DNA of 64,000 nucleotides. Origin: Naegleria gruberi. Lineage: Eukaryota. The stretch lies in assembly GCA_000004985.1 (NCBI GenBank), contig GG738885.1. One strand, written 5' to 3'. Positions 902-22,869 of this stretch are shown piece after piece. Positions within the stretch are counted from its first letter, which is position 1. Every line of letters begins with the position of its first letter. Position numbers and translations under genes: made by a program. A model generated the notes under the pieces. It saw only the letters and a list, made by a program, of their open reading frames with translations, was not told where the DNA came from and ran no database searches.

Positions 902-2407
902 TTAAATGATTATTCTCTTCTTAATGGCTTCCTTCTTTGCCAACTTTTCGAATTGAATTGTTTGTTTGAAACGATGATGAGTGTCAAGCATCAAAATGCA
1001 AATTTCAGATTCGACATCATCAAATAATGAATCAATCAAATGTTCGTTTTGAGCAGTGGCAAATAAATCCAAGTGATTCTTGACCTTATCGGTCATGTAT
1101 TTTGGCAGGTTGACAGATTTTTCACCTCTGACATCTAAATAATCTGTGTAGATTTCGAACGAAATTTCGTACTTCTTCTTTTCCACATCAAGTAAATCCT
1201 TTTCACTAAATTTCTTCTTTTTCTTCTTGTGATCTGTTGAATCAGAACCTGCATCACTACTTATTTCAGATGAAAGCTCGAACAAATATTCTTGAATGTC
1301 AAAACTCCTTTCACACAAAATTTTGTAATCTGAAATCTTTTCCAAAATTTGGAAGTTCTCAATGCTCAACTCAATCTGACAATGTTTTCTAAATAATTCT
1401 CTAGTAATTGGATGTTCCATTGTATCCATTAATAGAAATGCTCTCACTTGATTGAGTTTTCTATTAGTAGATTCATCCTTCTTGACTGATGCCACAAATG
1501 AAGTGACAATGACAGGAACTACCAATATAAGTGAAATCAAAATGACTACTAGTGAAATAGTAACCATAATGACAGTTACACTCTGACTATCCTTCTTGGT
1601 ATTATCCACATAGGAGACCATGATTTGAAATTCATCCTTATATCCATCAAGATAGGTTTGATATTGTTGTGAATTTAACAAAATCATGGCAGTTGAATAG
1701 TTTCCATTCATTGCTAGTCTGATAGCTCTTTGTTCGAGAAAGATGGCTTTGGAGGTTTCTAATTCTGCATTAGGTTTTCCCTTTAGTGCCACATTTCTAA
1801 TAGATTCTGGAACGAGTGCTTTAAAGTAAGCAGTATTGTTACTGAACTTTGACAGATAGGTATTGTACTTGGTTTGATATAATTGAGTAAGTGTTAAATT
1901 GTAATTGGAAAAGACTGAAGATCTGGCAGCTGCAATAGTTGTTTCTCTATAATAGTTAGTGTCAGAATCCAAATTATCCCACACATTGTTATATTCGTAT
2001 TGTAACACGAACGCAGCAATGATTAGACCAGCCAAAATGAGGAATGAAGTTAAATTAATAACTAGAGAACTCAAACTGAAAATTCTCAATGTTGAAAGCT
2101 GTAAAGTTCCTAAGCAAGTATTACAAGTGAGAATGACATCTGAATCTTTGCTCTTAACTGAAGAAGAACGTGGTGTTCTTATTGATGTAGTAATGGACTT
2201 GGCAGGTCCTTCTTCAGCAATATGTGAATTGGTAGTGGATGAATCATATTTTACACTTGCAAACTTTTTAGGAGGTTGCATTGGACTTGAAATTGGTGGA
2301 CTAGTTGCCAAATCGCTCGGAGAAGAACACTCTGCAGGAGAATGAAGGTTGACTTGACTGGTGCTCAACTCTTTGAGTTCTTGCAGTGAGCCACTGTTGG
2401 TGGTCAT
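902..2407 (-). CDS. Two-TM membrane protein with ~150-aa extracytoplasmic helical domain and C-terminal RGS (regulator of G-protein signalling) domain
   Basis: 501-aa ORF. Hydrophobic segments lie at ~aa 110-135 and ~275-300. The C-terminal region carries RGS hallmarks: ELFRKHCQIELSIENFQILEKISDYKIL, then KKYEISFEIYTDYL, then ICILMLDTHHRFKQT. It is a paralogue of the 21181..22869 gene. Confidence 0.7.
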   Translation of the reverse strand: MTTNSGSLQELKELSTSQVNLHSPAECSSPSDLATSPPISSPMQPPKKFASVKYDSSTTNSHIAEEGPAKSITTSIRTPRSSSVKSKDSDVILTCNTCLGTLQLSTLRIFSLSSLVINLTSFLILAGLIIAAFVLQYEYNNVWDNLDSDTNYYRETTIAAARSSVFSNYNLTLTQLYQTKYNTYLSKFSNNTAYFKALVPESIRNVALKGKPNAELETSKAIFLEQRAIRLAMNGNYSTAMILLNSQQYQTYLDGYKDEFQIMVSYVDNTKKDSQSVTVIMVTISLVVILISLILVVPVIVTSFVASVKKDESTNRKLNQVRAFLLMDTMEHPITRELFRKHCQIELSIENFQILEKISDYKILCERSFDIQEYLFELSSEISSDAGSDSTDHKKKKKKFSEKDLLDVEKKKYEISFEIYTDYLDVRGEKSVNLPKYMTDKVKNHLDLFATAQNEHLIDSLFDDVESEICILMLDTHHRFKQTIQFEKLAKKEAIKKRIII

Positions 2408-2586
2408 TTATGATTATTTTTTTGAGTTGTTAAATTGATTTCAATGAAGGTAACGCATTGGTTATAAAGGCAGTCAACTTGGGAAACGTTAAACATTGTA
2501 CAGTACAAATTAAAAATTGTGCTGTAGAAAATGGTGTCGTTGATTTGGTCCTTTGGTCAAGAAATTTTCATTTGGAAAGCATGTTT

Positions 2587-3296
2587 CTAAAAACGGACTA
2601 TGCATTGTGCATGAATTCTATTTTGATTTGTAATTAATTCAAATGTCTTTAACCATTCATTGGCTGGTTCAGTTGCTTGGTTTCCTTTCAAGATCATTTC
2701 TTTTCCAATATATTCAATAATTAAAGTAAAGGCAGGAGTAGGCTCTATTTGTTTTATTCCAACCTTTTTTTAACAATTGAATTAAATTCAGAAAAGTGAT
2801 TGCAGAAGCTACTTAATTTCAGATAGAGCATGAATAAATGTCCAAGCAAACCTCCAAACCTTTCCGAGTGAATTAATTTACATGATTTTTCACTTTCTTC
2901 AATGACTTCAAATGTGTGTTCACCAGTGAAGAGAGGGAAATATTTCCAACCCATGACTCCTTTCCATCCAAACACAAAGTGTCCCTTTTGTTGTGGACTA
3001 GATACTTGCCATTTCCATAACTTGGCATTCATTACATTATCTTCAGTGAGAATGGAAACTTTGAATGGCAACATTTGAAGATGAGAAGCATAGGCAAGAT
3101 TTGGATCGGAAACCAATCTCTTTGCAAATACTTGTTCCAATTCCAATCCTTCTCCTAGAGGTTCCCATTTAACAACCATTCCCATCGGATAATGTTCTCT
3201 CTTGGTAATATATTCAAATACATCGGAAGCAGGCTTATTGATGGTAATAGTACTGCTAACAAGTTTGTTCCAAAATTCAACCTTTGCACAATTCAT
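2587..3296 (-). CDS. SRPBCC/Bet v1-like (polyketide-cyclase/START-like fold) small protein, probably 2 exons
   Basis: ORF 2754..3296 reads like a Bet v1-type fold (W/F/G-rich, ...FVFGWKGVMGWKYFPLFTGEHTFEVIEE...). An open frame upstream on the same strand, after a probable ~95-nt intron, continues ...VGIKQIEPTPAFTLIIEYIGKEMILKGNQATEPANEWLKTFELITNQNRIHAQCIVRF with its stop at ~2587. Confidence 0.45.
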
Positions 3297-3725
3297 TTCT
3301 CTCTACAATTTCTATGATATACTAATCAATTCAACTGATATTATTCAGTTCAACTCAATAATTTACAGTTATTTTTTCTTGATGAAAACTGCAAAGCGAG
3401 ATTCCAAGCATCTATTTATGCATTTTTTTAAGGCGCACCTTTTTGTTTTTGGCGGTATGAAGGGCGACTTGGCTAAGAGTGCGTCTCAATGTTCATTAAC
3501 AAGTGTCCTTTGCTGTAAATAATTACAGTCATGTAGTGTTAATAATACTTCAGAGTGATTGCATAAATCTACCAACAACATCATGATGGTAGATTGTGCA
3601 TTATCTTGTTATTCCATGTTTTGTTTGGATATCAACTCTTTAAAATCAAAAAGCTCAAATAGGTTCATCCGAGAATCTTCTTGTTGTGGTGTGGTGATAA
3701 CATGTAATGTGCCAAGATGATGGTT

Positions 3726-4601
3726 TTATTGATTTGTTGTCTTTACACTGGTCATCCATGTCAGAATGTATTCCATCAACTGCTGTTCTGTTAGATTTTC
3801 CAATTGTTGTGGTGGTAACGGTACCATTTCATTGTTACTTGTTGCATTCTTAGTATTTGCATTCGTTGTTGCATGTTGGTTGGATTGAAATTGTATTGGA
3901 GAAATTTGCTGGTGATGTTGCATTATCAAACTACTTGTTGGAGAAGTAACAGGACTATTATGTACATTAGGATAAAGTGCATGTTGTTGTGAAACACCAT
4001 TAGGTGGAGTGGAAGGTTTCGAAGATGGAATAACATGTTGAATGTTATTACTCAGAATTGGAGCTTGTTGTTGATGTGCATTGCTCGTTTTACACACATC
4101 AACATTGGGATCTTCACCCAGAAAGACCTTCTTCAAGAAGATTTCTCTAAATTCCTCTGGTGGCATAGATTGAAAGTAGGACTGTGTTGTCGGAGACGTA
4201 TTGTTCACATTACTCCCAATATCAACATTGTTTTCAATAACATGTTGATGAGTTGGTGAAGTATTCTGAAAAGGTACATTCGTATTGCTATATTGAACAG
4301 ACATTTTTGGTTGAAGGAATTGAAAACAATGCTGCCTATTAATTACATGATTTCCAAACTGTTGTTCCTGTTGATATTGTTGCTGTTGTTGGTAAATTAA
4401 AACATTCTTCTCATTTCCAATAATCCCATTCGAAGGTGGTATCTGAAAATTTGTATTGACCAAAGAAATTGGTGACGTGTTATTCTTATTACTCCTAGTT
4501 GTTGAAGTCCTCCCATGCCTATTATTGTTATTATTAAAAAGGGAAGGATTCGTCGCCGAATTATTAACACCTTGTTGTTGTGATGGTTGTTGTTGTGGCA
4601 T
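3726..4601 (-). CDS. Q/N-rich low-complexity nuclear-type protein (291 aa)
   Basis: Long ORF with poly-Q/N tracts. It may extend into upstream exons (4600-6400 has no long ORF). Confidence 0.45.
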   Translation of the reverse strand: MPQQQPSQQQGVNNSATNPSLFNNNNNRHGRTSTTRSNKNNTSPISLVNTNFQIPPSNGIIGNEKNVLIYQQQQQYQQEQQFGNHVINRQHCFQFLQPKMSVQYSNTNVPFQNTSPTHQHVIENNVDIGSNVNNTSPTTQSYFQSMPPEEFREIFLKKVFLGEDPNVDVCKTSNAHQQQAPILSNNIQHVIPSSKPSTPPNGVSQQHALYPNVHNSPVTSPTSSLIMQHHQQISPIQFQSNQHATTNANTKNATSNNEMVPLPPQQLENLTEQQLMEYILTWMTSVKTTNQ

Positions 4602-6488
4602 TTGTTTTAAAAGTTTAAATCTTGATGAGCAAGTAGCTACATTTTCATATCAATAACACAGTAAAGGAAGTGAAGGAAACATGCAATGATCCAAATTGCG
4701 AAATCGTTCAATGACTTCCAAACGAAGAATTATTCAAAAGAAGAAACTTGTCCAATTGACCATGTCCTTGCTGAATTCCCCAGATATCATTAATTCGTAA
4801 AATAGATTCTGACATGATAACGAGTTCGAATAATTGTGGTGCCAATAACCATGTTCATTGCGTTACTATTCCTCAAAAGTAATATTAAACGACCGAACTT
4901 GCCTAAACGAAACCTAAAGAATCCAACCATCTAAAGAACAATCATTACATTTGAACTGACCATCAAATAAAAAGGAATATCACATTATCTAGATAGTGTA
5001 TGCGAATTGTAAGCAAAATCATGTCAGGCGTTGTTATCACCACAATTAAATCCTACATTAAGTGCGAGTATTGTATACAACCAGCATGTTGTTGTTGTTA
5101 TTCATCATCATCGTTAAATATCATTATGTGAGAAATTTCCAAGTTGTTGTACTTGATATTGGCATGTTCATCAGAAGAGATCTTGTTGTTGAAGATTCCA
5201 AATAAAGGGTCTCTATAATGTAATGTCAGAAATTAACCGAAAATAATTTTGTTGTGGGTTAATGATCATGTAATTGCTGATGAAGTTATTGTTGATGAAG
5301 ATGTGCTCCAACACACACAAATTACATATAATCTCACCACATGGACAATCTAAATCAATGAATGTGATTTTAGCTAAAATACCAACACATAAACATGATG
5401 TAATTTCGCAATAATTATCTGACGCCATATGTGAAGGAACATGGGAGGAAACACCAACCACAAACAAATGTTATTTCCACCACAAAACCACATCTATTTC
5501 TCTTCGGAAGCAGGCACATCAAACAATTAAAGGAGTAAATAGTCTAACATCATAATATTATACTGAGTAAACAATTCTTTTCGCAAATGGCAACAAACTT
5601 GTTGGAGATGTATTTTTCTGCTCTCCAACAACAAAGTTAATATAAAGTTGTTTCAACCCAAGCATACAAAATCATACAAATATTACATATAATTTTCATC
5701 GTGCTTATCATCATCAACCATATTATTATTGTATATTATTATTTTTTGTATGTAAACAATAACGAATGATCACATAATACAACCACACATCCATCTACAC
5801 AAAAAAACCACATAGGAATTCATACAACATTGCAAAAACCATTACTTCAAGTATGGTCATATCATCATTATCATCACTGTGGTTAACTCTCTCATGGGTA
5901 TCCACTACTCATCTCTCCAGAAGAACAAAAAAGATAACTTGCTATCATTGATGACGTAATTTTTTGTTATTTACTCAGCAAATTGAATTTCCGTTGCTAG
6001 AGAGATCCTCTTCCTGTGAGAAAACAGTGGTGAAGTTCAAATTTGGGTACGTGACCGGTTTGGGAAATTTTATTAATGTGAGATTTTGAAAGAGGGTTTG
6101 AATTTCCAAGGTATTATTCGTGGTGGGTAAAGTGGAATGTGAACCTGATTTCATCTGTTGATGAACTACAGTTGTTGTAGTTGTGATGTAAATATTGAAA
6201 ATGTCAGTGCTCAAGTTTATTTTACAGAGCTCTTGTCAATGGTTGTAAAGGAATGTCCAAAACTTGAACATCTCCAAATCATAACTTGTGTTTTCATTCC
6301 TCCTAACTGCAGATTTTAATCATAAAAACTCTAATTTTTTAATTAAATGTCTTTTGACAGCATCAACTTAAAAAGGGCAATTAATGTTCCAAATTTGTCT
6401 ATCTTTACAGCTTGTTATTGATTGGGACATATAGAAGTCTGTTTTCGTTATATAACATTTATAGGAGAGATCTCTTGGTATACGAATA

Positions 6489-7013
6489 TTGAATATTCAG
6501 TTTCTCTTTTTCTTGAAGAACTGCTTTCAAAAGAATATTAAGAAGAAAAAAATAGAAAAAAACAAGATGAGCATTCAGTGTAGACTTCAGAAAGGTCAAC
6601 AAGATTCGAATATTATTCAAGATGACACATTAATGCAAATTTTTAACCAAACTAAACATAACAAAAAGAAGATTATCAAACAGAACGAACAACAATTCGT
6701 ATGGAAACGATTCAATACATTATTCATTGATTATTTTCAAGAACCAAAAACAAAACGAAAGACATCTGACATTAGCAAACAAGAAATTTTAAAAGTATTA
6801 CATCTTACTCAAAGACAGGCATGTAAACAACTTGGATGTACATTATCCACAATGAAAAGAAGATTTTACGAATTGAAATCTGATCTTGGTTTGAAATGTT
6901 GGCCACAGAATTATAATGAAATTTGTAACTTGCCAATATTTCCAAAAATTTATCCATTGAGTTTGAGTTTTATCTTGAATGCTTCAAATGACGAAACGAG
7001 TAAATCTGAATGA
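6489..7013 (+). CDS. Small RWP-RK-like domain protein, paralogue 1 of a 4-gene tandem array
   Basis: The C-terminal domain ...ISKQEILKVLHLTQRQACKQLGCTLSTMKRRFYELKSDLGLKCWPQNY...IFPKIYPLSLSFILN aligns with the RWP-RK core (L..L...AA..LG...T.LKR.CR..GI.RWP.RK). The real start is probably the internal Met at ~6564. Confidence 0.6.
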   Translation: MNIQFLFFLKNCFQKNIKKKKIEKNKMSIQCRLQKGQQDSNIIQDDTLMQIFNQTKHNKKKIIKQNEQQFVWKRFNTLFIDYFQEPKTKRKTSDISKQEILKVLHLTQRQACKQLGCTLSTMKRRFYELKSDLGLKCWPQNYNEICNLPIFPKIYPLSLSFILNASNDETSKSE

Positions 7014-7825
7014 ATGATTCAGGATTATCAACTTGACCAAAAATCAGTCACATGCCAATCCATCAAAAAAAACCAACTTGCTAACAATAATCATCAATAA
7101 AATGTAAATAAACACAATCTTAACTCTTTCCAAAATATAAAAATTTAATTTTTTTCATTAATAAATCCAAAAAACAACAATTAAGCACACAACCAATCTC
7201 ATAGACAAAAATACAGAACTATTTGACTCACTATTTAAAATTGGACATGCAAGTTTGGTTGTTCCACTAAAACTATATAAAATTAAAGAACCTCTTTCTG
7301 ATTCACCAACAAATTTCAAAGTTGGTTTTTCAGGACAGTAAAAGAAGGAGTGTCAACTGTATGTGTATTGATCTTGCTAATAATTCATCCACTAATAATT
7401 GGAAGAATTGGAGAAACTCATACCCTGGACTCTTCATTATTTCCAATAAGAAACTCTTCGAGTATCATCAGACGTAAAATTGACTTGTTTTTTTAGTTTG
7501 AAATCTGTTGATTAAGTGAGCGATATTTGGCCCTAGTTCCAACTTAGTACGAAATCAAATCACTATCATTTCGAATAGGGTAATTTCGAATAACCTATAG
7601 GAAATGTGATTCATTGCATCTATGACTATCATGTAAATCTCTCTATTACTTAAAAATACAACAAAATTAGCATAATAGATTTTGTATTGTGGTTGATGGC
7701 ATTTCAAAGCACATCAGTTTGACATTTGGATGTAATTGTTACCTCTCTGTAGATGTCATTGCACCTAGTTGCAATAACTGTTCTGAATATTCTGAATATT
7801 TTTATGAATAATAAAAACAAACAAA

Positions 7826-8236
7826 ATGAGCTCTGTAAATAATTCCACCATGATTAGAGACACTTTGACAATGCAAATATTTGGCTCAGCAAAATCCACG
7901 AAAAAGGGCAAAATTCAATCAGCTTCTGACTGTCAATTTGTTTGGAAGAGAGTTGACACAAACTTTGGTGTATTTTTCTTGGAGAAAGATCTCGAATTTA
8001 GGTCAAAAAGAAAGACAACTGACATTAGCAAACAAGAGCTCATTAAAGTTTTACATCTTTCTCAAAGACAAGCTGCCAAATCATTGAATTGTACATTATC
8101 AACATTGAAGAGAAGATTTTATAATTTGAAAGAAGAATTTGGAATGTCAACATGGCCAAAGACATTTAAGGAAATAAGTCACCTGCCAATTTATCAGAAA
8201 ATGTATCCAATGTCTTTGAATTTCATCCTCAATTAA
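7826..8236 (+). CDS. Small RWP-RK-like domain protein, paralogue 2
   Basis: ...ISKQELIKVLHLSQRQAAKSLNCTLSTLKRRFYNLKEEFGMSTWPKTF...IYQKMYPMSLNFILN. Same domain and same orientation as the other array members. Confidence 0.65.
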   Translation: MSSVNNSTMIRDTLTMQIFGSAKSTKKGKIQSASDCQFVWKRVDTNFGVFFLEKDLEFRSKRKTTDISKQELIKVLHLSQRQAAKSLNCTLSTLKRRFYNLKEEFGMSTWPKTFKEISHLPIYQKMYPMSLNFILN

Positions 8237-9069
8237 CTGAAAATATTCCAACATACATGCTTGCAGTAACTTATCATGTGCAAGAGATGAAAATTATCAA
8301 CCTACGTTGACAAGTAGACGAAACTTTATTTGCCAGAAATTGGACAAACTTTAGATTTAAAATTCCATGAAATGTAATTAAATGTAATTAATGAATAAAT
8401 TGTTGGACGAACGAAACAAATGTATTGAACACATGCCCTTGTTAGTTGTTTTCTCACTAACTATTCGAAAAGCGTCAACCAAGATATATTGAGCTCCATA
8501 AATTTCACCTCTTTGATACATCAATACTAATACAGAGATTATATTTACTATTAGTGGATCTATCCTCCTCAATGTCTAGTTCATGTAGTATTGTTGAATA
8601 TTCATTAGCACAGATAGTTGTCCTGTTCTTCACTACTGAGTAGAATGCAAGATTAAAGTGTTTGTACATGTACTAATGGTATTTCGTCTATCGTTATTGG
8701 AAACATGAAGTTTAAACATAAATCATGAAATAGGCAAGAGGAATTACATACCTCCCTTTCCAATCTCCTTTTACATCATGAGAGGCTTTTATAAAAACCT
8801 CCTTTCTAATTCGATTTTGATTCGAACAACTTGTTAGAAACTGATTTGGAGTAAACTTGCAATTTTGTATGAAATTTGGCAAAGGCCGAGGATTGAGCCA
8901 ACAAAGCTACTGGAATATTGTTGTTCCTGCTGTTCTCAAAATGTCAACATCTTTACCTAGTTGACATTTAAGGAAAAACGACAAGAGACATATTTTTAAT
9001 AAGGAAACTATTATGACCAGAAGAAAGAATGGAAAGTTATCATTCTGTTCATTTAACAACCATTAAAAA

Positions 9070-9546
9070 ATGAACAGACAAGCTACCGGCATTACCAAAC
9101 AATCCAAACGAAACAATAGTTCACTTTCGAATAACCGATTCCATACAACGCATGTTTCGTCATCCACTTTTCCCAACACCCAAACAACCTCTCCACTCTC
9201 CAACACCATTTCCTCCTCCCAAATCATCTGGAAACAAGTCAACTCTCCCTCTGGAAAATACTTTAAAGAAAGCGCGCCAAAAGATTACCGAAAGTCCAAA
9301 ACCATTTCACAAGACGAAATGATTCGTGTATTGCATTTATCCCAAATTCACGCCTCAAAAATCCTGAATTGCAGTTTATCGACATTGAAGAGAAGATTCT
9401 ACGAATTGAAAAACAATTTTGGGCTCAAGTCGTGGCCTCAATATTTTAGAGAGGTGAGACATTTGCCGATTTTTAAGCAAATGTATCCGATGAGTTTGAC
9501 ATTTATTTTGAATGTTGATGAGGAAAAGGTGGTGAATGAGGAATAG
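9070..9546 (+). CDS. Small RWP-RK-like domain protein, paralogue 3
   Basis: ...ISQDEMIRVLHLSQIHASKILNCSLSTLKRRFYELKNNFGLKSWPQYFREVRHLPIFKQMYPMSLTFILN. This is the member closest to paralogue 4. Confidence 0.7.
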   Translation: MNRQATGITKQSKRNNSSLSNNRFHTTHVSSSTFPNTQTTSPLSNTISSSQIIWKQVNSPSGKYFKESAPKDYRKSKTISQDEMIRVLHLSQIHASKILNCSLSTLKRRFYELKNNFGLKSWPQYFREVRHLPIFKQMYPMSLTFILNVDEEKVVNEE

Positions 9547-9972
9547 TTGAGATTAGGTTTAGAATAGAGATAGTTCTGTAATTTTTGAAGAATATGGAAG
9601 ATAGATGAGAGAATATTTGTAAAATAATTTATTAATAAATCAATTGAAAACTGTAGATTTACAATTGTTGTGTTGCCAAATAATTCAAATAAAGCAATGA
9701 AGGTTTCGGAAAGTCAACCGAAACTATGTGAGAAAGTCCATCAATTAAGAAAACTCTTTACAAAACAAATATTGAGATGGAATGCATTCCCTACCCATTC
9801 TGCAAATCAAGGTTACGAAAACACAATATTCTGCAATCAACATCCATTCAAAGATCTGAGAATTTCTTAAAAGGAAAGATTCTCTGATTGACGGCTGCCA
9901 ACAGTCACAGAAATCAATAAAAGCAATTAAATTGGGTCCATCTCTCGCTTTTTAAAATCCAACCATCAGTTT

Positions 9973-11486
9973 TTGATATCTCATTCAATAACATTAAAAA
10001 AAATGGTCAACCATCTCATAATCTTGTCACTTGCCATTCTACTATTCATTTCCTCAATTTCCTGCCACATGGAAATGAAACTTCCCTCCCCACGTAAAAC
10101 ACTTCCAACAGGTGGCACCGATTACGATATGAGTTCTCCCCTAGGAGCTCAGAAACCATTTCCATGTGGTGGCAAAACCTCACTCTCCTCAATTACCACC
10201 TGGAATGCAGGTGAAACTGTTACAATCAATATCGAAGGTGGTGCCCCTCATGGTGGTGGACATTGTCAGTTTGCAATCTCTCCTCGAAGTGATCAGAAGA
10301 GGTGGATTGTTTTGGCTGATAATTTGGGAAGATGTCCATTGGATAAGAATTATTCATTCAAATTGCCAGGTGAGGTTCCAAGTGGAGATTATGTGTTTGC
10401 TTGGACTTGGATTAATGCTGTTGGAAATAGAGAGTAAGTAGTAATGGAATAGTTTGGTTTCTAATATTTTTAAGATATTACATGAATTGTGCTGATGTGA
10501 GAATTAACAATGGAGGAACTAAATTTGAAGGTAAACAACTCCTAGTAGCCAACATTCCAGATCCAAATCTTTCAGGATCATCCGTTTATTTCATTGGAGA
10601 AATTGGTGAATTCCCAAATAATCCAACTTTTGCAACTGACAAATTTCCACAAAGACCTGCTCTGACATTGACAGCAAGTGGAATTCAAGGAGGTGGAGGC
10701 GGAGGAGGCACAAATCCAACCAACCCAACCAATCCTACAAATCCTGGAATGAACAGCACTTGTAATTATTTCCTTGTTTCAGGAGATACCTTAAATGCAA
10801 TTGCTTCCAGATTTGGAACTACCTTATCTGTTATATATTCATTGAATCCAACAATTACTGATCCTACCAAGTTGCAAGTTGGTGATAAAGTTGTGTATCC
10901 ATGTTCTGGTCAATCTAGCGGTGGTTCTGGAAATACAGGTGGTGGCAGTTCAGGAAATGGAAATGGCTCTGGAACTACCAATACTTTTGGCTGTGTCTAC
11001 TCATGGACAATCATCTCAAAATTCAATGATACTAAATTAGGATTCATTGGAAAATTAAATGTCCAAACAAGTCTCGCACAGACAAACTGGAATATTGCAT
11101 GGACATTCCAAAAAGGAGGAATTTCTGCATTCAAATTGAGTAGCCAAACTTTGACATCTTCTGCACTTTCTCAGGTTGCTATTAAGGGAGAAACTCAAAT
11201 TGAAGCAAATAAGGTCATGTCCATTACGGTTTTCGGGGTTGGCGGAGTTTCAGATTCAGAAGCATTGTTTGTGAATAATGAGAGATGTACCAAGTCATCG
11301 AGTGCTGATTTTGAACAAACTAGTAATTCAGCTCCGGTGTTGGATTGCAAGTCAACTCCGACAAATTGTAAAGATTCATGTTTGGAACAGTATAATCAAT
11401 ATTGTGCTAGCTCTGGAATTGTAATTTGGAGGGGAATGAGTGCAATTATGACTGGATTGTTGATGATTTATTTGTTTGTATTGTAA
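9973..11486 (+). CDS. Secreted LPMO-like (N-terminal His, AA11/AA9-type motifs) + LysM domain protein with C-terminal GPI-anchor-like signal; 2 exons (intron ~10434..10474)
   Basis: Signal peptide MVNHLIILSLAILLFISSISC is followed directly by HMEMKLP, a His-1 as in LPMOs. A second His lies in HGGGHCQFAIS. Exon 1 ends ...VGNRE at a GTAAGT donor (10434). Acceptor AG at 10473-74 joins in frame to YYMNCADVRI (AA9/AA11-like Y..CA[QD]). Then come a G/TNP linker, a LysM domain (CNYFLVSGDTLNAIASRFGTTLSVIYSLNPTI...LQVGDKVVYPC), a G/S linker, a Cys-containing module and a hydrophobic C-terminus. Confidence 0.6.
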
Positions 11487-11774
11487 ATATAAAGATTCTT
11501 ATTGGAATAGTTTAGAATAGTCATGTTTCTTTTATGAAATGGAGATTTTTAGGTGAAGAGATGGCATGGAAAAGGAAATAGTTGAAATTTAACCAAAGTG
11601 TCATATTAATACTGAAATTGTTTAATTATGAATAATAGTTGACAGATTGACATTTAAGGATGCATCAAGGAATGTCATGAATTTTAAAAAAGGTATTTAA
11701 AATATTATACGAAACCTTACCTCACTTTTTAATGTTAGACAGAACACATTTCAAAGAAACCTAAACGAAAAACA

Positions 11775-12230: not shown

Positions 12231-12426
12231 AATTATTGTGGAAATTACCAAAATTAAATCTTTCCTTTTCTAGCTTTTAAAGTCATACTATTTGCACCTC
12301 AAAAGTTGGAATGTCTATCAAAATCATAACATTACCTATACCATGTTTGAAGCCAAATACAAACTTTTATTTAACACTTTTGGTTTCAAATGTACATGGA
12401 GTTTGAGCTCAAACTATACGAAATAA

Positions 12427-12765: not shown

Positions 12766-13108
12766 GTTTAATTTTTTCAGAATGTTTAGAATAGAAATGA
12801 AATAGTTGTTGAAATTTAAAGGAAAATCACTATTCAACGTGCAAATTGGAAAAGAAATGTGTGTTTCAAGAGTGTACCGGTATTCTCTCATGTTCTGTTG
12901 TATTCTGGTAATATTGTCTTGATAATTGGTAAGATTACAATCAACATTGTAAATGAGTTTAATTAAACTGGTATGGATCTATCTTGTGTAGACGAAACTT
13001 TCCAATTGAGGGACAATGTTGGACCCAGTAACAGAAAGCTTATCACACAAATTATCACTCTCTAATTATCATGATAATACTTGAGTAAAAATAATTTGAT
13101 TTGAACAT

Positions 13109-14278: not shown

Positions 14279-14446
14279 TTTTTTATATTAATATTTAAAT
14301 TCAATATTTAAATTCAATATTATTAATATTCCCGAACAAGAGAAATTAATAGAAAATATTCATGGAGTCCAACTCCCAGACAAAACTCCTTCAAAATTCT
14401 TGTTCCGAATATTTAATATATTTAAAATATTATTAAAAAAATTACA

Positions 14447-16159
14447 ATGAGCAAACGAGATTTAAAACCATTATCAAAATCATTGTTTAGTTTTCTTAAG
14501 AATCAAGATAGTGATGAGGAAGAAACGGATACTTTTTCTAGAATACAACCCTATGTAAATAATCATCAATATGAAACTGTTGATTTTACGGATAGGAGGA
14601 ATGAATTCTATAGATTGATGAGGAAGGGAATTATTGCTAGAATGGAGGAAAATTATGTTGAAGCTTGTAAATATTTAGATTTGGCTTTGGAGTTGGAACC
14701 CGATAATTATGAAGTTTATTTGGAGAAGAGTATTTGCCTGAGTTTATTTCATAGGTTTGTTATTTGTTTTACTCCAACAATTCTCATGTACATTATTGTT
14801 GAATTATTCAATAATATTACATCATCAAATTTATTATCATAATGATCGGAACATTTGCTTTTTGAACATCAAACAAATAATAATATTATTATAAATATAT
14901 TCAATGATTGATTCCATCATGCACATATTAAACTCATCATCATTTTCTAATTGTCTAATAATAATAATAACATTATTAGAACACTTTCATCAATAAGAGT
15001 ATTAGTACATGGTCTCAATCACTCAAAAAGAAGTTATTGGTTCAATGACAATGAAAGGGAATTGGAACGTGAATATTTCGGATGTCTTTTCAGAGGATTA
15101 ATAGAGGAAGTGAATGATCAACAGGAGGCTAGCTTGAAACTCTACGATCAAGCTTGCAAGCTTTATCCGACTGGATTTTATGCCTTGTTTTCATATGCTT
15201 ATGCTCTGGGTTCTATCTCTCTCAATCCGAGCACAACATTGGCACCAAATGTCAGAGAAAATTACATGAATCAAGCTTGTGAATATTTCAAAAAGGCTCT
15301 CACCTCTATTAGAAATTCTCCACTCCACTCTAAATTTCATACCTATTATATATGCATTCTGTATACAAATATTGCTTGGGTCATTAGAGAGAATAATCAA
15401 ATTGATGATGAGGCACTTGATTACTATTCTGAGGCCATTAAATTGAATGGCAAACATTTGAGATCCTATCTCTCTAGAGCCAGTTTATACTCTAAAAAGA
15501 GAGAAAATGGAAAATCTATTTCTGATTTTACAGCATGTATTGAAATTAAGGAAAAACAAACACCAAGATGGATTGGAATTGTGGACAAGATGAAAGTCTT
15601 CTTCAAAGATATGGAACAAGATTCACATATTATTTTCACAACCATCTATTTGTTCATGTCTAGACACTTGGTTGAGATTTTCACCATGAAATATATTGAT
15701 AATTTTCAAGTTGACACTCCAGAAACTACCATTACAACAAGTGGCACGTTGCTAAATAAGCAACAAACAAAGGATTATGAGAAGAGGTTGAGTGATCTCT
15801 ATGAAGAACGAGGAATTCAATTTTTAGATGATAACAAGATTGAGGAAGCACTACTTGATTTCACTGCAGCCAAAATCATTTGTCCATTCAGAGCTCACCC
15901 GTACATTTTCACGTACTTTATTGGAATTAATGTTATTGACAGATCAAAATGCTTTTCAATTTTGGAGAATTATTTGGAATTCATGGAATGTGAATCAAAT
16001 ATAAGAGGAGTGATTAGTGAAGAATCATTAAGCCAATTCGACATGTCTACTCTATACAAACACATTTCTCAACTCTACGAAGAACAAAACCAATCAAAAC
16101 AAGCCAAATCATCTCGCCTCAAGGAAAAACAATTACTTAATTATTCTAGAATTTGCTAA
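14447..16159 (+). CDS. TPR-repeat protein, probably 2 exons (ORFs 14447..14842 and 14951..16159 joined by an intron)
   Basis: TPR-like helices occur in both ORFs (YVEACKYLDLALELEPDNYEVYLEKSICL; ASLKLYDQACKLYP; LDYYSEAIKLNGKHLRSYLSRASLYS; EEALLDFTAAKIICPFRAHPYIF). A phase-2 donor near 14753 and the acceptor ...attattag at ~14969 give a continuous reading. The junction is not certain. Confidence 0.55.
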
Positions 16160-16386
16160 CAATCCTAATGGATCCATAATGATATAATAGATAGCAGTAG
16201 TGTGAAATATTGGTATTAGATTGAAACGAGTTAAAATCTCTTCCAAAAACAATAATGGTATATGCAGAAGAACCTCACCAAGAACTCAACAGTCTAAATA
16301 AGGCAAATAGACATGATCTCTGTAATGTATGAAAAGGCACCATTATACACAACAAACTCGCACAAGAACATAAAAAAATAGCCACA

Positions 16387-17496
16387 ATGTGTATAGTGCC
16401 AACAACCTCATTCAGCGAATTTAAAAGTATTGGAGAGGAAGAAGTAACGTCCAACAATGTATTAAGGATGAAAAGCTCTTCTTTAAAGTGCGAGCACTCC
16501 TTAATACGCAATCAGAGCTTACCAACAATAAGCATTCGACCAATCAAGCCACGACAAGTCCTCAACAACATGTTCCACCTCTTTATTGAGATGATTGTTT
16601 ACTTGATGAATGCAATGTACATGGCCACAGTATTTGATGTTGATGAATTGTTCCTCCCGATACAAAAGCAAATAGAAAGCAATCACTTTACCTCATCGTC
16701 ATTATCAATGGATAAGAAACATGCTAAGGAAAATTCTGAAATACCAACAACGAGAGAACTTCCCTTTGAAAGATTAACACAATCAGTTTCTTCTCTCCTT
16801 TCTCCGCCACGATCTCCAGTCAATAAGCAACATGATGCAAAATTATCTCCCAATAAGAGAAATTCTTCCTTCACCGACTTGTTTGCTCAATCTTCTCCTA
16901 GTCCATATTCCAATTTGATTGTCCTGAATGCACACTATGAGCAAATGATTATGGACATTAAGCAGACAAGCAATGTTCCCACCAATAACATGCCAACAAC
17001 AATTTCCACACCAATGAATTATGTACATAATAATGGGAAAGAAACAACAAGGAAAGAAAAGATTAAACAAACACCACTCACAACATGTGATTTCTTGATT
17101 CCAACCATTCAAATTGATTGTCCACCTGTTGAAGAACAGGAAATTTCGAATGTTACTCCACCAGAAACCATTTCTCTATTTGAATCTCCACAAGAACTCA
17201 ACCAAGCAAGAAGGAGGTCCAATTCGTTTTTTCCAGTTCAACCACCAGAGAAAACATTAACTCTAAATGGAACTAATGTAGATCAGCATGAAAATCCCAT
17301 TTTCATTGTAATTCCACCTGTTGAAGCTAGTAGTAATAACAATTCGAATGATTGCTTTGTTTCGAATAATGTGAATAGTGCATTATCAACATTCACAAAA
17401 CCAACCATTACGAGAAAGAAAAATTCCTTTACAAACTTGCTAAAACCAAACTTTCCTCAACCAACAATCTGTAAATTAGCTACACTGCACAACTAA
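16387..17496 (+). CDS. Hypothetical S/T/N-rich protein (369 aa)
   Basis: Long ORF, low complexity, no domain recognised. Confidence 0.4.
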   Translation: MCIVPTTSFSEFKSIGEEEVTSNNVLRMKSSSLKCEHSLIRNQSLPTISIRPIKPRQVLNNMFHLFIEMIVYLMNAMYMATVFDVDELFLPIQKQIESNHFTSSSLSMDKKHAKENSEIPTTRELPFERLTQSVSSLLSPPRSPVNKQHDAKLSPNKRNSSFTDLFAQSSPSPYSNLIVLNAHYEQMIMDIKQTSNVPTNNMPTTISTPMNYVHNNGKETTRKEKIKQTPLTTCDFLIPTIQIDCPPVEEQEISNVTPPETISLFESPQELNQARRRSNSFFPVQPPEKTLTLNGTNVDQHENPIFIVIPPVEASSNNNSNDCFVSNNVNSALSTFTKPTITRKKNSFTNLLKPNFPQPTICKLATLHN

Positions 17497-17791
17497 TAAA
17501 CTAATTTGCCAAGGTTTAGGATATTCACACGAGCATGATTCCAATATTATTCAAAAGAAAGTGATTTCCAAAACAATTTGTTGGACATTACATGTTGCTT
17601 GTATCAGTTTTGTTTGGCAATCGCTCTGTGTCGGTCAGTTTACCACCATGCGCCACATCAATGTCAATTGTCAACACTGACGACACTTAACAATTCCACA
17701 AGCTGAAAAAAAACAACTTCCAACACTCCTTTTCAAAACACATTGTTGAACTAAAACTTACAAAACCAATTGATAGCCACCAACACCCATC

Positions 17792-19666
17792 ATGGTTTCA
17801 ACTAGCAAGAAGAAGAACTCTTCTTCAAACACTTCCCTACCAAATAGTCCAGCCATTTCCATCACTTCAGTTGAAAGCAATGACATGAACAATTCACCAT
17901 CTTCTCTTCCTTCCTCTCCTTCGAATTCTTCCAATTTTTTCTCTTCTTCACCGAACAGCAAATCACCTGGTAGAAGACTTCACTTTTTTCCCGCCAAATC
18001 TCCTAAAAAAAAATCTACAACTTCCATCTCTACTGATTCACTTCATGCTGCAAGTAATACTAATCATGGTTGTGATGCGATAGGTGATTATACCTTTTCG
18101 TATGAGGCTGTGCTAGATGATGAGGAGACGAGACAGTGTTTATTGGAATATATGAGGACGATTAGATGTGAGGAAAGTTTGTTGTTTTTAGATCAGGTGA
18201 ATTCATTTCATAGAAAAAGATCAACTGCGAATAGGTGGAGTATGATACAGTCAATATTTGAACAATTCTTTTGTGAGCACTCGAAATATGAATTGAATTT
18301 ACCACAGAGAGTTAAGGATATGATGATTCACACCTATTCGGACGTTGTTGAGGAAATTGCTCATAGGAAGAGAATGAATCTTGATGAGGATACTAATAGT
18401 AGTAGTAATTCCAGATCATCATTGGAACAAGCAAATCAGCCACCACCACAACAACAAGTAAAACAAAACAAGAACAAGAATAATAATGAAAAGAGTAATA
18501 ATAATAATAGAAATTCTAAGGATGATTTGGATGTTTCACTAGGTTCTTTGGATTACATAGATTTGAGTGATTGTGAGGAGGCCCTAAAGAAGGCAGAGAG
18601 TTACATCCTCATCAACTTGAAAGAATATGTCTTTCCAAAGTTTGTCGGCTCTGATCACTTTCAAGGATTCATCTCAACAAAGAGCAAGACCTTTATTAAT
18701 ACTATTGGTACGGTGAAGGCCTTATCTCATTCGTGCTTTGTTGAATCATTGATGGACATGAGGAGGTGTGAAATTAATGTAGATCAAGTGAGAATGATCA
18801 AGAAACATGTCTTTGATACCAGATATTGGGATTGTATCTATCAGAAGGAAACAAGCTATGGTTTTATTTCTTCAAAAAAGTACATTCTTGGTGAGGACGA
18901 TCACGCTAAGGGTGTTTACTTTGCCAAGTGTGAAGTGATCTTTCCTTACTCTGCTGACCAAATTATGAATATCATGACCAATACAAAGAATAGAATTGAA
19001 CACGACAAGAATTTGGAAGATATCAAGAGAATTGGTTATAGAAACAAGTCTGGAACTACAAATTTTAATCCAAATCTGGTACATTCCAGTGATGAAGATG
19101 AGGATACACTCTCTTCCACTAGCTCTGCAATGTCTGACCTTCACGATACTGCATCTTCCAGATCTCATACATCAAATCATTCACATCAACAAACAAATCA
19201 TCATTCGCCAATATCAGGAAAAACCAAATTGGCCACCACATTAACACATGAACGATACAAGCTTGGTTGGCCAATCAAGTCTAGATATTATTTGCTCGCT
19301 CAGAGTATGGTACATGATACAACAGATAACATGTACATTATTGCAAAAAAGTCTTGCAGAATTCCAAATTATGATCCAGATGAAGGAACAAATATTGAAG
19401 CCATCAATATTGGTTGTTGGATGTTTCAACCTTTACTAGATGAAAATCAAAAGCCATGTTGTAAATACATTCAATTTGTTGGAACAGATTTGAGAGGAAA
19501 CATTCCAACATTTATCATTGAAAAGATTGTTAGAAAGAGAACTAGTAACTTTTACAAATCCACCATGAAAATGATCAAAGCTTGCGAAGAAGAGTCCACA
19601 ACAAGACCATTCGATTCAAGTGGTTATTTCGATACTCTAGATGAGAATGGCAGCATGGCTCTCTAA
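17792..19666 (+). CDS. RGS domain + START (StAR-related lipid-transfer) domain protein
   Basis: The RGS-like N-terminal part (YTFSYEAVLDDEETRQCLLEYMRTIRCEESLLFLDQVNSF...) is split by a poly-N/Q insert and resumes at LKKAESYILINLKEYVFPKFVGSDHFQGF. The C-terminal ~220 aa carry START-like motifs (...YFAKCEVIFPYSADQIMNIM..., ...GTDLRGNIPTFIIEKIVRKRTSNFYKSTMKMIKA). Confidence 0.65.
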   Translation: MVSTSKKKNSSSNTSLPNSPAISITSVESNDMNNSPSSLPSSPSNSSNFFSSSPNSKSPGRRLHFFPAKSPKKKSTTSISTDSLHAASNTNHGCDAIGDYTFSYEAVLDDEETRQCLLEYMRTIRCEESLLFLDQVNSFHRKRSTANRWSMIQSIFEQFFCEHSKYELNLPQRVKDMMIHTYSDVVEEIAHRKRMNLDEDTNSSSNSRSSLEQANQPPPQQQVKQNKNKNNNEKSNNNNRNSKDDLDVSLGSLDYIDLSDCEEALKKAESYILINLKEYVFPKFVGSDHFQGFISTKSKTFINTIGTVKALSHSCFVESLMDMRRCEINVDQVRMIKKHVFDTRYWDCIYQKETSYGFISSKKYILGEDDHAKGVYFAKCEVIFPYSADQIMNIMTNTKNRIEHDKNLEDIKRIGYRNKSGTTNFNPNLVHSSDEDEDTLSSTSSAMSDLHDTASSRSHTSNHSHQQTNHHSPISGKTKLATTLTHERYKLGWPIKSRYYLLAQSMVHDTTDNMYIIAKKSCRIPNYDPDEGTNIEAINIGCWMFQPLLDENQKPCCKYIQFVGTDLRGNIPTFIIEKIVRKRTSNFYKSTMKMIKACEEESTTRPFDSSGYFDTLDENGSMAL

Positions 19667-19858
19667 TTACAAATTACAATATAATAATATTTGAAGTAAA
19701 TCAAATAATAATAATTTGTCAGTTGCATTCCTGAAACTTATTCAACGAAATTTAATCTTTTGCAAATGGTAACTTGGTTTTATAATTGATGAAAACTGAC
19801 AAGGCCCATTTTAGAACATTTTCCATCACAATTTCATCAAACAATAATAATTTAAAAA

Positions 19859-20725
19859 ATGAAACAAGGCAGTCAAGCCGACAAATCATCACAACTCTTG
19901 TCAAAAACAAAGGATTATATCGACAAGACATTTGACACAAATTATTCACGTGATTGGAATGCCAATCAAGTGGTTTCCTGGATTAAATTAATAGGATTGG
20001 ACTCGTTCGCCAAATCCTTCTCCAAAATTAAAAATCTAAACGGTGATTATCTCTACAAGAATATTCTACAATCGGAAGAAGCCAATTTGGCATTAAATTT
20101 TAAATTTATTACCAAGTTTGGAAGTATTAGAAAATTATTTTTAAATTCTCAACAATTGAAGAATAATTTGTATCATTTGAATGCGGAAATGGTCATGAGC
20201 GAGGTGATTAAGAATCCAAATGTGCTTTCTCCCAAGAGTTTGAGTATTTTCTCTAAAAAAGAAGAAAGTTCTCTAAGTTCAGGTGGAAGTTTCGATTCAC
20301 TCTTCAAGAGTATGAGTGAAAGTAGTTTATTTGAAGACGATACCATGGATTTGATAACTACTAGTTATGGAAAAACAAGTGGGAGGAGTGAAAATTGTTT
20401 ACAAAATGTAACCAGTGATTCGTATATTGATTTTAAGGCCTTACCTTCAATTGATATTGCTTATTATTTAAAGAGGAAACGAATTTTAACATCAAAGGAA
20501 CATTTATCAATTGTTTTGCAACATGCCATTGATGGACAAGTTTTCCTCTCAATGAAAACTCGATTGGATTGGATTCAATTGTTTGTTTTTCATTATAAGG
20601 AATATTATCTGAGCCCTGAGGAGGTTGATATTGAGGCATATTATGTGAAAAATTGTAAATCAAATCTTGCTTGGCCAAATTCAGAACAAATTGAAGCTCT
20701 GAAAAATATTGTCACTTCACAGTGA
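19859..20725 (+). CDS. Hypothetical protein with SAM-like domain(s)
   Basis: WNANQVVSWIKLIGLDSFAKSFSKIKNLNGDYLYKNIL fits the SAM consensus (W..V..WL..IGL..Y...F....I.G..LL). Confidence 0.5.
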   Translation: MKQGSQADKSSQLLSKTKDYIDKTFDTNYSRDWNANQVVSWIKLIGLDSFAKSFSKIKNLNGDYLYKNILQSEEANLALNFKFITKFGSIRKLFLNSQQLKNNLYHLNAEMVMSEVIKNPNVLSPKSLSIFSKKEESSLSSGGSFDSLFKSMSESSLFEDDTMDLITTSYGKTSGRSENCLQNVTSDSYIDFKALPSIDIAYYLKRKRILTSKEHLSIVLQHAIDGQVFLSMKTRLDWIQLFVFHYKEYYLSPEEVDIEAYYVKNCKSNLAWPNSEQIEALKNIVTSQ

Positions 20726-20831
20726 GCTAGATGTCAATAATTTTGTTAAATTGATATCAAATGAAATCAAATGAAATGTAAATAATATATAAGAATTTAA
20801 ATATCTTTCAATATTATCATGGCTGATTAGT

Positions 20832-21167
20832 TTGTCCCAGCGGAAAGTGAACGAATCAAAGTGGAAAAAAATGACTTCGGAAAAACCTTTCAGACTTCAC
20901 ATCTGTACCACGATTTTCATTGTCTTTCTCATCTTTTTCTTCCCACCTCTAGCAGTCTTCTACATGCTAATTATTTTCCCCATGTTTCATTCAGAGTTTC
21001 GTCAAAAATTACGAAACTTGGGAACTTTTTGGTCGGAGCAAGATCCAAGTCATCCATGCGTGCATGTCATGATTTGTCTGTTGGGAACTTGTTTGTGTTA
21101 TGTTCCTGGATTATTATACTGTTTTTATATTACTTTTGCATTCTTGATTCACACAGAAGGAAAATAA
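20832..21167 (+). CDS. Pmp3/UPF0057 (Rci2/Lti6-type) hydrophobic proteolipid, long-loop variant
   Basis: FFPPLAVFYM and GYVPGLLYCFYI match the two conserved TM motifs of the Pmp3 family (FLPPLAVF...GYIPGIIHA). A ~50-aa insert separates them. Confidence 0.55.
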   Translation: MSQRKVNESKWKKMTSEKPFRLHICTTIFIVFLIFFFPPLAVFYMLIIFPMFHSEFRQKLRNLGTFWSEQDPSHPCVHVMICLLGTCLCYVPGLLYCFYITFAFLIHTEGK

Positions 21168-21180
21168 ATGTTTCGAATAT

Positions 21181-22869
21181 TTATTTATTGGAAGGAACTT
21201 TGAGAGAATCAAGATTAAGACCTGATTTACTGTCTTGAGCCTTCTTACTCTTTCTCACAGTTGGAAGTTTAATCTTGAGTGATTCCTTCTTTGTCTTTTT
21301 CTGGAATTCAACTGTTTGCTTGAATCGGTGATGGGTGTCAAGCATCAAAATACAAACTTCTCCTTCCACTGGATCGAAAATCATATCACTAAGATGTTCA
21401 TTCTCTCCTGATGCAAACAAATCTAATTGAGTTTTGACCTTGTCAGCTGCATGTTTGTTGATGTTGACAGATTTGTCACCATTGACATCTAGGAAATCAG
21501 TAAAGATTTCAAAAGCAACTTCGTACTTTTTCTTTTCAATTTCAATTAAATCTCTTTCAGTATAACCCTTTTTCTTCTTCTTTTTACCTTGGCTGTCACT
21601 ACTCATTGAAGTTGATGTTGAACCAGTGTCAGAAATGGCATCTGAAAAGGCGACAGTTAGCTCTTGATCATCATACAAGAATACTTGAATTTCAAATGAT
21701 TTCTCACATAAAATCTTGTAATCTGTAATCTTGTCAAGTAACAAGTAATTTTCCAAGCTCATTTCTTGTTTACAATATTCTTTGAATAATTTTCTAAGTT
21801 TGTTATCTCTCATGGTGTCCATAAGCATGTAGGCGTTTGCTTTCTTCAATCTCTTATTGTTGGCATTGTCAGAATTCATGGAAAAGGCAAGTGACATGAT
21901 GACTACTGGAATAACAATGACAATTGACACACAGACAATAATTAATTGCAAAGTGGTCATGGTAGTTGAGAAATCTCTATAGCTAACCTCCAAAGCCTTA
22001 AAATAATCAACAGAAGGCTTGAATTCCACTTCATACCAAGGTAAATAATCTTGATAGGTGTCAGAGCCAATTAAATTCATGGCAGCTGTAAAGTTTCCAG
22101 CTTTGACCATACTAATAGCTTGTCTCTCAACACTCATAGCCTTCACTGTCTTCATATCATAAATTGTTATATTATGTTTGACAGAATATCTCAATTCATT
22201 TGGCATGTATGCCAACATGTTATTAATTTCAGTATTGAACTTGGTTGAGTAATTTCCATAGAGATTGGCATAGCCAAGAGCAACTGTCTTGTTGTTATTG
22301 GCATAGACTGCTGAACGACATGTGTAAACCATCATGTCTCTATAATAGGAAGTGTCAAGATCCATATTTGAAATTGATGTCAATAAATTATTGCTGCCAA
22401 CGTAGCCAACAATAATGACAGTGAGTAATGCGATGAAACCAAGTAGATTAGCAGTTAAACTAGTCAAATTGACAAGCTTGAAGGATGACAGCTTGAGGGT
22501 AGTTCCACAACACATTCTGATGGCAAATAAAGAATTTGACGAGTGACTTGTCCTAGATCCAGTTCCAGATTTCTTATGGGAAGCAACAGAACTCTTCTTT
22601 TTAGACTCTTTAATGATGGTAGAAGCTGCTGGCTCTGTTGCAAAATTTGCTTTTGGTTTTGGACTGGTTGGAGTTGTTGGCGTTTGACATTTTTCCTTGA
22701 CAAGATGATCCATAGAATGACTCGAGCTAGAAAAGGATGAAGAAGCATCACCTGCTGTAAAATTTGTTGGAGTCAAGTAATAATCACAATTATGAACGTC
22801 TATTCCATTCAATTCTTCGATTGCTTTTTGCATGGAACTGTCAGCTGACACTGAAGTTGATTCTTGCAT
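21181..22869 (-). CDS. Two-TM extracytoplasmic-domain protein with C-terminal RGS domain (paralogue of 902..2407)
   Basis: 562-aa ORF with the same order: TM, ~150-aa helical ectodomain, TM, then an RGS domain (KLFKEYCKQEMSLENYLLLDKITDYKILCEKSFEIQ...KKYEVAFEIFTDFLDVNGDKSVNI...VCILMLDTHHRFKQTVEF). Confidence 0.7.
   Translation of the reverse strand: MQESTSVSADSSMQKAIEELNGIDVHNCDYYLTPTNFTAGDASSSFSSSSHSMDHLVKEKCQTPTTPTSPKPKANFATEPAASTIIKESKKKSSVASHKKSGTGSRTSHSSNSLFAIRMCCGTTLKLSSFKLVNLTSLTANLLGFIALLTVIIVGYVGSNNLLTSISNMDLDTSYYRDMMVYTCRSAVYANNNKTVALGYANLYGNYSTKFNTEINNMLAYMPNELRYSVKHNITIYDMKTVKAMSVERQAISMVKAGNFTAAMNLIGSDTYQDYLPWYEVEFKPSVDYFKALEVSYRDFSTTMTTLQLIIVCVSIVIVIPVVIMSLAFSMNSDNANNKRLKKANAYMLMDTMRDNKLRKLFKEYCKQEMSLENYLLLDKITDYKILCEKSFEIQVFLYDDQELTVAFSDAISDTGSTSTSMSSDSQGKKKKKKGYTERDLIEIEKKKYEVAFEIFTDFLDVNGDKSVNINKHAADKVKTQLDLFASGENEHLSDMIFDPVEGEVCILMLDTHHRFKQTVEFQKKTKKESLKIKLPTVRKSKKAQDSKSGLNLDSLKVPSNK

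Follow-up and report, generated by a model that had tools for sequence, protein, structure and literature searches.

A small family of two-transmembrane RGS proteins with a predicted sensor-like four-helix bundle, represented by two paralogous Naegleria gruberi genes: candidate membrane receptor-GAPs

Heterotrimeric G-protein signaling is thought to be driven from the membrane by seven-helix proteins. Some are G-protein-coupled receptors (GPCRs) that serve as exchange factors; others, known from plants and many protists, are seven-transmembrane (7TM) proteins that carry a regulator of G-protein signaling (RGS) box and act as regulated GTPase-activating proteins (GAPs). Naegleria fowleri encodes 13 G-alpha subunits, several of which are self-activating; its RGS repertoire comprises 28 7TM-RGS proteins, with boxes that have been shown to act as GAPs, and 79 further RGS proteins (PMC9283941). 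That survey of N. fowleri RGS proteins does not mention a class with two transmembrane segments (2TM). N. gruberi has 229 RGS proteins, and fusions of RGS boxes to at least one transmembrane segment (TM) are found across most eukaryotic lineages (PMC3971589). Here we describe two genes in a 64,000-nucleotide stretch of N. gruberi contig GG738885.1 (GenBank assembly GCA_000004985.1; G+C content about 33%), called the window below. Their products are predicted to carry a four-helix bundle (4HB) between two TM helices and an RGS box after the second. Receptor-RGS and TM-RGS fusions in general are already known; the combination of 2TM, a 4HB sensor-like ectodomain and RGS is apparently new. Full-text literature searches found no description of it, with the limit that Anantharaman et al. 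2011 (Gene 475:63) and the TM counts in the supplement of PMC3971589 lay outside their coverage and an earlier 2TM-RGS description is not fully excluded. In public databases both genes are labeled only "predicted protein" or "RGS domain-containing protein".

Gene 1 (coding sequence 905-2407, minus strand, 501 aa, stop codon at 902-904) and gene 2 (21184-22869, minus strand, 562 aa, stop codon at 21181-21183) are each a single uninterrupted open reading frame (ORF), intron-free. Gene 1 is identical in length and sequence to the N. gruberi protein XP_002674272 (NAEGRDRAFT_80658; P0012), and gene 2 matches the N. gruberi "predicted protein" P0001, on the same scaffold, from end to end with 100% identity. 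The ORF list and these exact matches bear out the positions, the strand and the spacing of about 19 kb given in a preliminary description made from the DNA letters alone; the measured spacing is 18.8 kb, with both genes in equal orientation. The same description had proposed that the two proteins are paralogs sharing the order TM1, all-helical ectodomain, TM2, linker and RGS domain, and this order holds in both. BLASTP aligned the two proteins over 454 aa at 40% identity (E 3e-102), and the ectodomains alone over 122 aa ungapped at 34% identity (E 1e-21). The peptide CILMLDTHHRFKQT is common to both translations, as is ILMLDTHHRFKQT, which the preliminary description had quoted. Identity differs by region (TM1, 37%; ectodomain, 29%; TM2, 32%; linker plus RGS box, 54.5%), and the two genes can be aligned in every segment. 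The output domain (linker plus RGS box) is much better conserved between them than the putative sensor. Faster divergence of the ectodomain than of the RGS box fits paralogs that share one output but are tuned to different cues. The description had named beforehand what would speak against it, namely a disordered or intracellular ectodomain, or an alignment limited to the RGS box; neither was found.

The region between the two TMs (gene 1 residues 135-278, positions 1574-2005; gene 2 residues 159-304, positions 21958-22395; both on the minus strand) is predicted to form an up-down four-helix bundle of about 145 aa. An AlphaFold2 (AF2) model of gene 1 residues 100-320, built from an 11-sequence alignment, is all-helical with a mean predicted local distance difference test (pLDDT) score of 84.0 (91 to 96 in the core). 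A second model of residues 100-501 from 18 sequences (pLDDT 81.9) has the same helices as the shorter one. In the models the last helix of the bundle runs on into TM2. The gene 2 ectodomain is homologous to that of gene 1 and matches the ectodomain profile of the family with an E value of 7.8e-52. Residues R154, R162, Y177, P200, E225, N236, A240, Y249, E259 and Y266 (gene 1 numbering) are invariant in a 12-sequence alignment, and Y177, P200, E225, A240, Y249 and Y266 stay invariant in 18 sequences.

The best structural matches of the ectodomain in PDB are the bacterial 4HB sensor domains of methyl-accepting chemotaxis proteins (MCPs) and histidine kinases (HKs), at 5 to 13% identity in the superpositions. 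The preliminary description had likened the topology to such sensors, and the likeness stood for the fold, a confident four-helix bundle, and for the 2TM topology. It failed for sequence homology. None of the Pfam sensor families (4HB_MCP, TarH, CHASE, Cache) was matched by any of 11 ectodomains even at E<=10, and these 11 had no consistent Pfam family at the same threshold. When the whole proteins were compared with Pfam at E<=1, RGS was the sole family and the sensor families were again unmatched. The ectodomain profile found no match among PDB sequences. Since no sequence-level match was found, the ectodomain is not classifiable as a member of 4HB_MCP or TarH, and as modeled its likeness to MCP and HK sensors is one of fold and topology only. 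Compared with Tar/Tsr, Vc1313, MCP2201, PcaY, NarQ, TorS and HK9, the family differs in having no detectable sequence homology, in being eukaryotic with N-glycosylation sequons in the domain, and in its RGS output, with no HAMP, kinase or MCP signaling domain.

One side observation concerns the third and fourth bundle helices, which contain a TPR-like hairpin (E..AI.L...GNY[ST].A..LL.S..Y; gene 1 residues ~209-248, window ~1664-1783). It corresponds to positions 75-114 of the ectodomain profile, where the bacterial-type TPR protein P0022 matches seven times with borderline E values. No N-glycosylation sequon of the family is better conserved than the one at the Asn of GNY[ST] (14/18).

Membrane topology was examined by hydropathy, charge and sequon counts. 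Kyte-Doolittle (KD) plots show two strong hydrophobic segments 143 to 158 aa apart in 12/12 family members examined; the TM1 peak is double and overlapping in one of the 12. TM1 of gene 1 comprises residues 116-134 (2006-2062, minus strand; KD peak 2.48; helical in both AF2 models) and TM2 residues 279-303 (1499-1573, minus strand; KD peak 3.29; with invariant V/P columns and within a continuous predicted helix). The corresponding segments of gene 2 are residues 140-158 (22396-22452, minus strand; KD peak 2.16) and about 305-327 (21889-21957, minus strand; KD peak 3.21; supported by the family alignment). Family proteins begin with a hydrophilic, S/T/P-rich stretch of ~100-230 aa that has no signal peptide, and a hydropathy scan of gene 1 found no N-terminal hydrophobic signal segment. 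Because of this hydrophilic N-terminus without signal peptide, TM1 is expected to act as a signal anchor. In gene 1 the putatively cytoplasmic N-terminal region (residues 1-115; 2063-2407, minus strand) is variable across the family apart from a juxtamembrane motif at its end. The N-terminus is probably disordered in both, and the residues at which the gene 1 models start (from 100) have pLDDT <50-57 in both models.

Lys and Arg are concentrated before TM1 and above all after TM2, where the motif S-x-R/K-K-D-x-S-N-x-K-K-L-K-K is found. In the 15-residue TM flanks of 12 proteins, 56 K/R lie on the pre-TM1 and post-TM2 sides vs 26 on the inter-TM side. N-x-S/T sequons number 65 in the ectodomains of 18 proteins vs 29.6 expected from composition, and 31 vs 25.2 expected in the cytoplasmic parts of the same 18; in two alignment columns the sequon is conserved, in 13/18 sequences and in 14/18. 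The richness in N-glycosylation sequons would place the bundle outside or in an organelle lumen. The data fit an N-in/C-in topology in which the bundle would face the outside or an organelle lumen, the two not being distinguishable by these counts. The extracytoplasmic helical domain between two TMs, as described earlier, is thus supported by the positive-inside counts, the sequon excess and the long N-terminus without signal peptide.

All members that reach the region immediately ahead of TM1 share a conserved juxtamembrane T-C-x-G (often TCCG or TCFG; gene 1 residues 95-100, window ~2108-2125), with the extended form TCxG-x-L-E/Q-L, on what would be the cytoplasmic side. Cysteines placed in this way, cytoplasmic and just before a TM, are typical S-palmitoylation sites.

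The cytoplasmic part of gene 1 consists of a predicted helical linker (residues 304-328) and the RGS box (329-488), together at 944-1498 on the minus strand; the RGS box of gene 2 comprises residues 352-522 (21304-21816, minus strand). Gene 2 matches Pfam RGS (PF00615) with 29.6 bits, above the curated cutoff of 23.9, and the relatives P0020, P0021 and P0017 score 34 to 35 bits. The precomputed Pfam record has no domain call on gene 1. A fold search confirmed the RGS box in gene 1, with the all-helical RGS-box fold superposing on R4-type structures at 2.1 Å over 110 to 115 residues (23% identity). In a MAFFT alignment the equivalents of the RGS4 G-alpha contact residues E83, S85, E/D87, N88, N128, L/V159, D163, S/T164 and R167 are kept in 11/11 members. 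Both hmmsearch and hhalign alignments to RGS10 and RGS4 place the contact motifs in the same register; the hhalign alignment of the cytoplasmic profile with the single RGS4 sequence was in register at a low probability of 5%. With these contact residues kept, GAP competence is a well-founded inference, and the family RGS box probably deactivates G proteins. The RGS domains ascribed to both proteins in the preliminary description are confirmed. The family shares with R4-type RGS proteins (RGS4, RGS3, RGS8 and RGS16) the helical fold and the examined G-alpha contact residues. It differs from them in weak similarity (Pfam 23.5-29.6 bits), in a box that is integral to a membrane protein and in a family-specific insert of 30 to 50 aa. 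This insert consists of an extended helix, a low-confidence S/T/D-rich loop and a largely invariant run of 5 to 6 Lys; loop and poly-Lys lie between RGS helices at gene 1 residues ~380-398 (window ~1214-1270) and gene 2 residues ~405-436. The insert may serve as a cluster of phosphorylation sites together with a patch that binds acidic lipids.

To define the family, an ectodomain-only HMMER profile was searched exhaustively against 1.84 billion representative proteins (threshold E<=1e-3). Sixteen proteins matched, 14 of which are family members or their fragments. The remaining two were judged spurious. One is a YDG/Ig repeat protein of bacterial type and the other a TPR protein that matched via a 30-40 aa "GNY..A..LL" hairpin; each matched through a short repeated stretch. 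These two aside, every full-length carrier of the ectodomain among the representatives is a 2TM plus RGS protein, and the ectodomain is never joined to any other output domain there. The named sources are N. gruberi, N. lovaniensis, N. fowleri (FDP41_010455 and FDP41_008207) and Willaertia magna, in addition to a few metagenome/ENA sequences. A search with the full-family profile added no genera beyond Naegleria and Willaertia. A word-index search with the ectodomain alignment alone gave a single fragment, apparently a limit of that index; its question is covered by the exhaustive search. In N. gruberi the family numbers at least seven (gene 1, gene 2, P0002, P0009, P0015, P0020 and P0024; P0027 is a fragment), and further members in the genome, which the preliminary description suggested looking for, thus exist. 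This is a small family, found by name only in Naegleria and Willaertia (Heterolobosea), and its ectodomain is a previously undescribed family that is defined here.

In the AF2 model from 18 sequences, one continuous helix of ~77 residues (model residues 156-232, gene 1 residues 255-331) comprises the last bundle helix, TM2, a basic linker of ~25 residues and the first part of the RGS box. Mean pairwise identity in the family is 45% in TM2 vs 30% in the ectodomain, and a V-x-P in TM2 (gene 1 V296-x-P298; alignment columns V197/P199) is invariant in 18/18 sequences including Willaertia. The continuous-helix geometry suggests regulation by mechanical coupling through TM2, as in bacterial 2TM receptors. 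Clustering or endocytosis like that of plant AtRGS1 is, by analogy, equally possible.

Taking these results together, we consider it reasonably probable that the proteins form a family of membrane receptor-GAPs, with an outside- or lumen-facing bundle linked by one helix to an inside RGS box that regulates G-alpha. The ectodomain would sense an extracellular cue, and the cue would alter the access of the RGS GAP to G-alpha, either by helix displacement or dimer rearrangement via TM2 in the style of bacterial 2TM sensors, or through clustering or endocytosis induced by ligand, in the style of AtRGS1. The RGS box would then speed the hydrolysis of GTP by at least one of Naegleria's many G-alpha subunits. 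GTP hydrolysis would be the regulated step because several N. fowleri G-alpha subunits are self-activating; when G-alpha takes up GTP on its own, the natural receptor is a regulated GAP, and a sensor-RGS fusion would be functionally sensible. The 7TM-RGS proteins (AtRGS1, N. fowleri 7TM RGS1-4 and Trichomonas 7TM-RGS) are alike in joining a receptor-like membrane part to a C-terminal cytoplasmic RGS box, in hosts with self-activating G-alpha where the GAP step is regulated (PMC9283941). They have seven TMs in place of the two seen here by hydropathy and in the models. The 2TM proteins would sense through the bundle between the TMs and not through a pocket in a 7TM domain or a large adhesion-type ectodomain at the N-terminus, and a single continuous helix is predicted to join sensor and RGS box. 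A more specific version, which we offer only tentatively, is that these are ligand-gated receptor-GAPs, eukaryotic chemoreceptors that follow the 2TM/four-helix-bundle design of bacteria, reached by convergence or by an ancient transfer, in which ligand would shift the TM2 helix and switch the RGS box toward self-activating G-alpha. If true, receptor-GAP logic would be independent of the 7TM scaffold, and a new class of candidate receptors for environmental cues would be added in Naegleria, the genus of the lethal pathogen N. fowleri. G-protein signaling in a bacterivorous amoeba would then have a second, non-7TM input, with paralogs tuned to different cues. The family would also offer a compact modular system (one sensor, one helix, one output) for studying transmembrane RGS control. 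Even conservatively, annotation is gained for the gene 1 RGS domain and for the ectodomain family.

Several results weigh against the receptor-GAP explanation. The AF2 input alignments were shallow (11 to 18 sequences), and the lack of a Pfam sensor family and of a PDB sequence match for the ectodomain leaves the sensor comparison to structure. On the RGS side, gene 1 scores 23.5 bits, just under the Pfam cutoff, the insert departs from the canonical box, and none of the full-length, cytoplasmic and ectodomain profiles had a significant match among PDB sequences (RGS boxes appeared only at E 0.07-0.9, with RGS10, RGS8 and RGS3 at E 0.07-0.3). The RGS4 contact residues used in the alignment go back to Tesmer et al. 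1997. A different explanation of the membrane part is that of a constitutive anchor, in which the TMs and the bundle would tether, orient or oligomerize an always-active RGS GAP and no ligand would be sensed. Animal RGS proteins are anchored by R9AP, R7BP or palmitoylation, and the anchor would do the same job in cis. Four-helix bundles are generic scaffolds, and structural salt bridges or core contacts could be made by several conserved residues of the ectodomain, which have charged or aromatic side chains (R, E, Y). However, a sequon-rich folded ectodomain of ~145 aa with invariant polar residues, kept from Naegleria to Willaertia, far exceeds the needs of a tether. Its best structural matches are specifically sensor domains of equal 2TM topology, and it diverges faster than the output domain, as sensor diversification predicts. 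We therefore regard the anchor as unlikely, though it deserves to be taken seriously.

The SNX-RGS proteins (SNX13/14/25 and yeast Mdm1) also combine N-terminal TM helices with an RGS domain, and the RGS box of SNX13 is among the top structural matches. By this comparison the family could be a non-GAP RGS scaffold on an organelle membrane with tethering or lipid roles. A Pfam scan at E<=1 found no PXA, PX or Nexin_C domain. The examined G-alpha contact residues, kept in all members aligned, are lost in a neighboring RGS ORF of the window, and the 2TM proteins have a folded inter-TM domain; to our knowledge no SNX-RGS protein has a folded domain between its TMs. A scaffold of this type is very doubtful. 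As for the origin of the receptor-GAP architecture, the TM1-4HB-TM2 unit might be a true homolog of bacterial 4HB_MCP or histidine-kinase sensors, acquired horizontally and fused to RGS, as opposed to a convergent bundle. The shared fold and topology are offset by structural-alignment identities in the 5-13% range, by the unmatched Pfam sensor families and PDB sequences, and by the profile search, in which no bacterial sensor appeared and only the YDG/Ig repeat and TPR proteins matched outside the family. True homology is improbable on this evidence.

The preliminary description had also called the pair consistent with segmental duplication. Equal orientation and a distance of 18.8 kb favor this, and local duplication does occur in the family: on N. 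lovaniensis PYSW02000030.1 (L001), P0007 and P0003 are direct tandem neighbors at 7524-9491 and 10001-11722. However, tblastx of the gene 1 and gene 2 regions found similarity confined to the genes and none in the flanks, and the identity of the two proteins is only 40%. In a neighbor-joining tree (402 columns, 200 bootstraps) the sister of gene 1 is NAEGRDRAFT_58017 (bootstrap 100%) and the sister of gene 2 is P0002 (96%), each on another scaffold. N. fowleri and N. lovaniensis proteins fall inside the gene 1 clade (63% support), and N. gruberi D2W391, N. lovaniensis 006401 and Willaertia form a deep subfamily (100%). The closer paralogs elsewhere and the presence of other species in the gene 1 clade make the split of gene 1 and gene 2 old. 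Judged by tree and flanks, the pair comes from an old gene duplication and not from a recent segmental one, and we consider a recent duplication of this chromosome region highly improbable. The flanks of the N. lovaniensis tandem (WGR, NUDIX, TBCC, HAD, kinase and PLD genes) have nothing in common with the window, and there is no synteny.

Five RGS-domain ORFs (PF00615) are found in the window, at 905-2407, 17792-19663, 21184-22869, 38012-39469 and 42410-47125. For comparison we take the N. gruberi genome to be about 41 Mb. If its 229 RGS genes (PMC3971589) were evenly spread, ~0.36 RGS ORFs would be expected per 64 kb (Poisson P ~4e-5). Since the five ORFs have four different architectures, the region is an RGS-gene neighborhood and not a simple tandem array. 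ORF 17792-19663 (plus strand, 624 aa), directly upstream of the gene 2 neighborhood, matches RGS near its N-terminus (residues 103-178, 43 bits), over only the first 76 of 117 profile positions; its long C-terminal half has no Pfam match at E<=0.001. ORF 38012-39469 (minus strand, 486 aa) encodes a soluble protein (no TM) with a C-terminal RGS box of 30 bits. In contrast to the 2TM family, its equivalents of RGS4 E83, N88, D163 and R167 are lost in the MAFFT alignment, which makes it a candidate non-GAP RGS protein and an internal contrast to that family. The product of ORF 42410-47125 (minus strand, 1572 aa) begins with a hydrophobic segment that resembles a signal and also carries NHL repeats and a GPS motif (residues 1056-1094). 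Six distinct KD hydrophobic segments, which would fit about seven TMs, lie in residues 1113-1402, and the C-terminus bears an RGS box of 39.5 bits. This protein is of the adhesion-GPCR-like 7TM-RGS type described for N. fowleri (PMC9283941). The 2TM-RGS and 7TM-RGS receptor designs thus lie less than 25 kb apart in the window.

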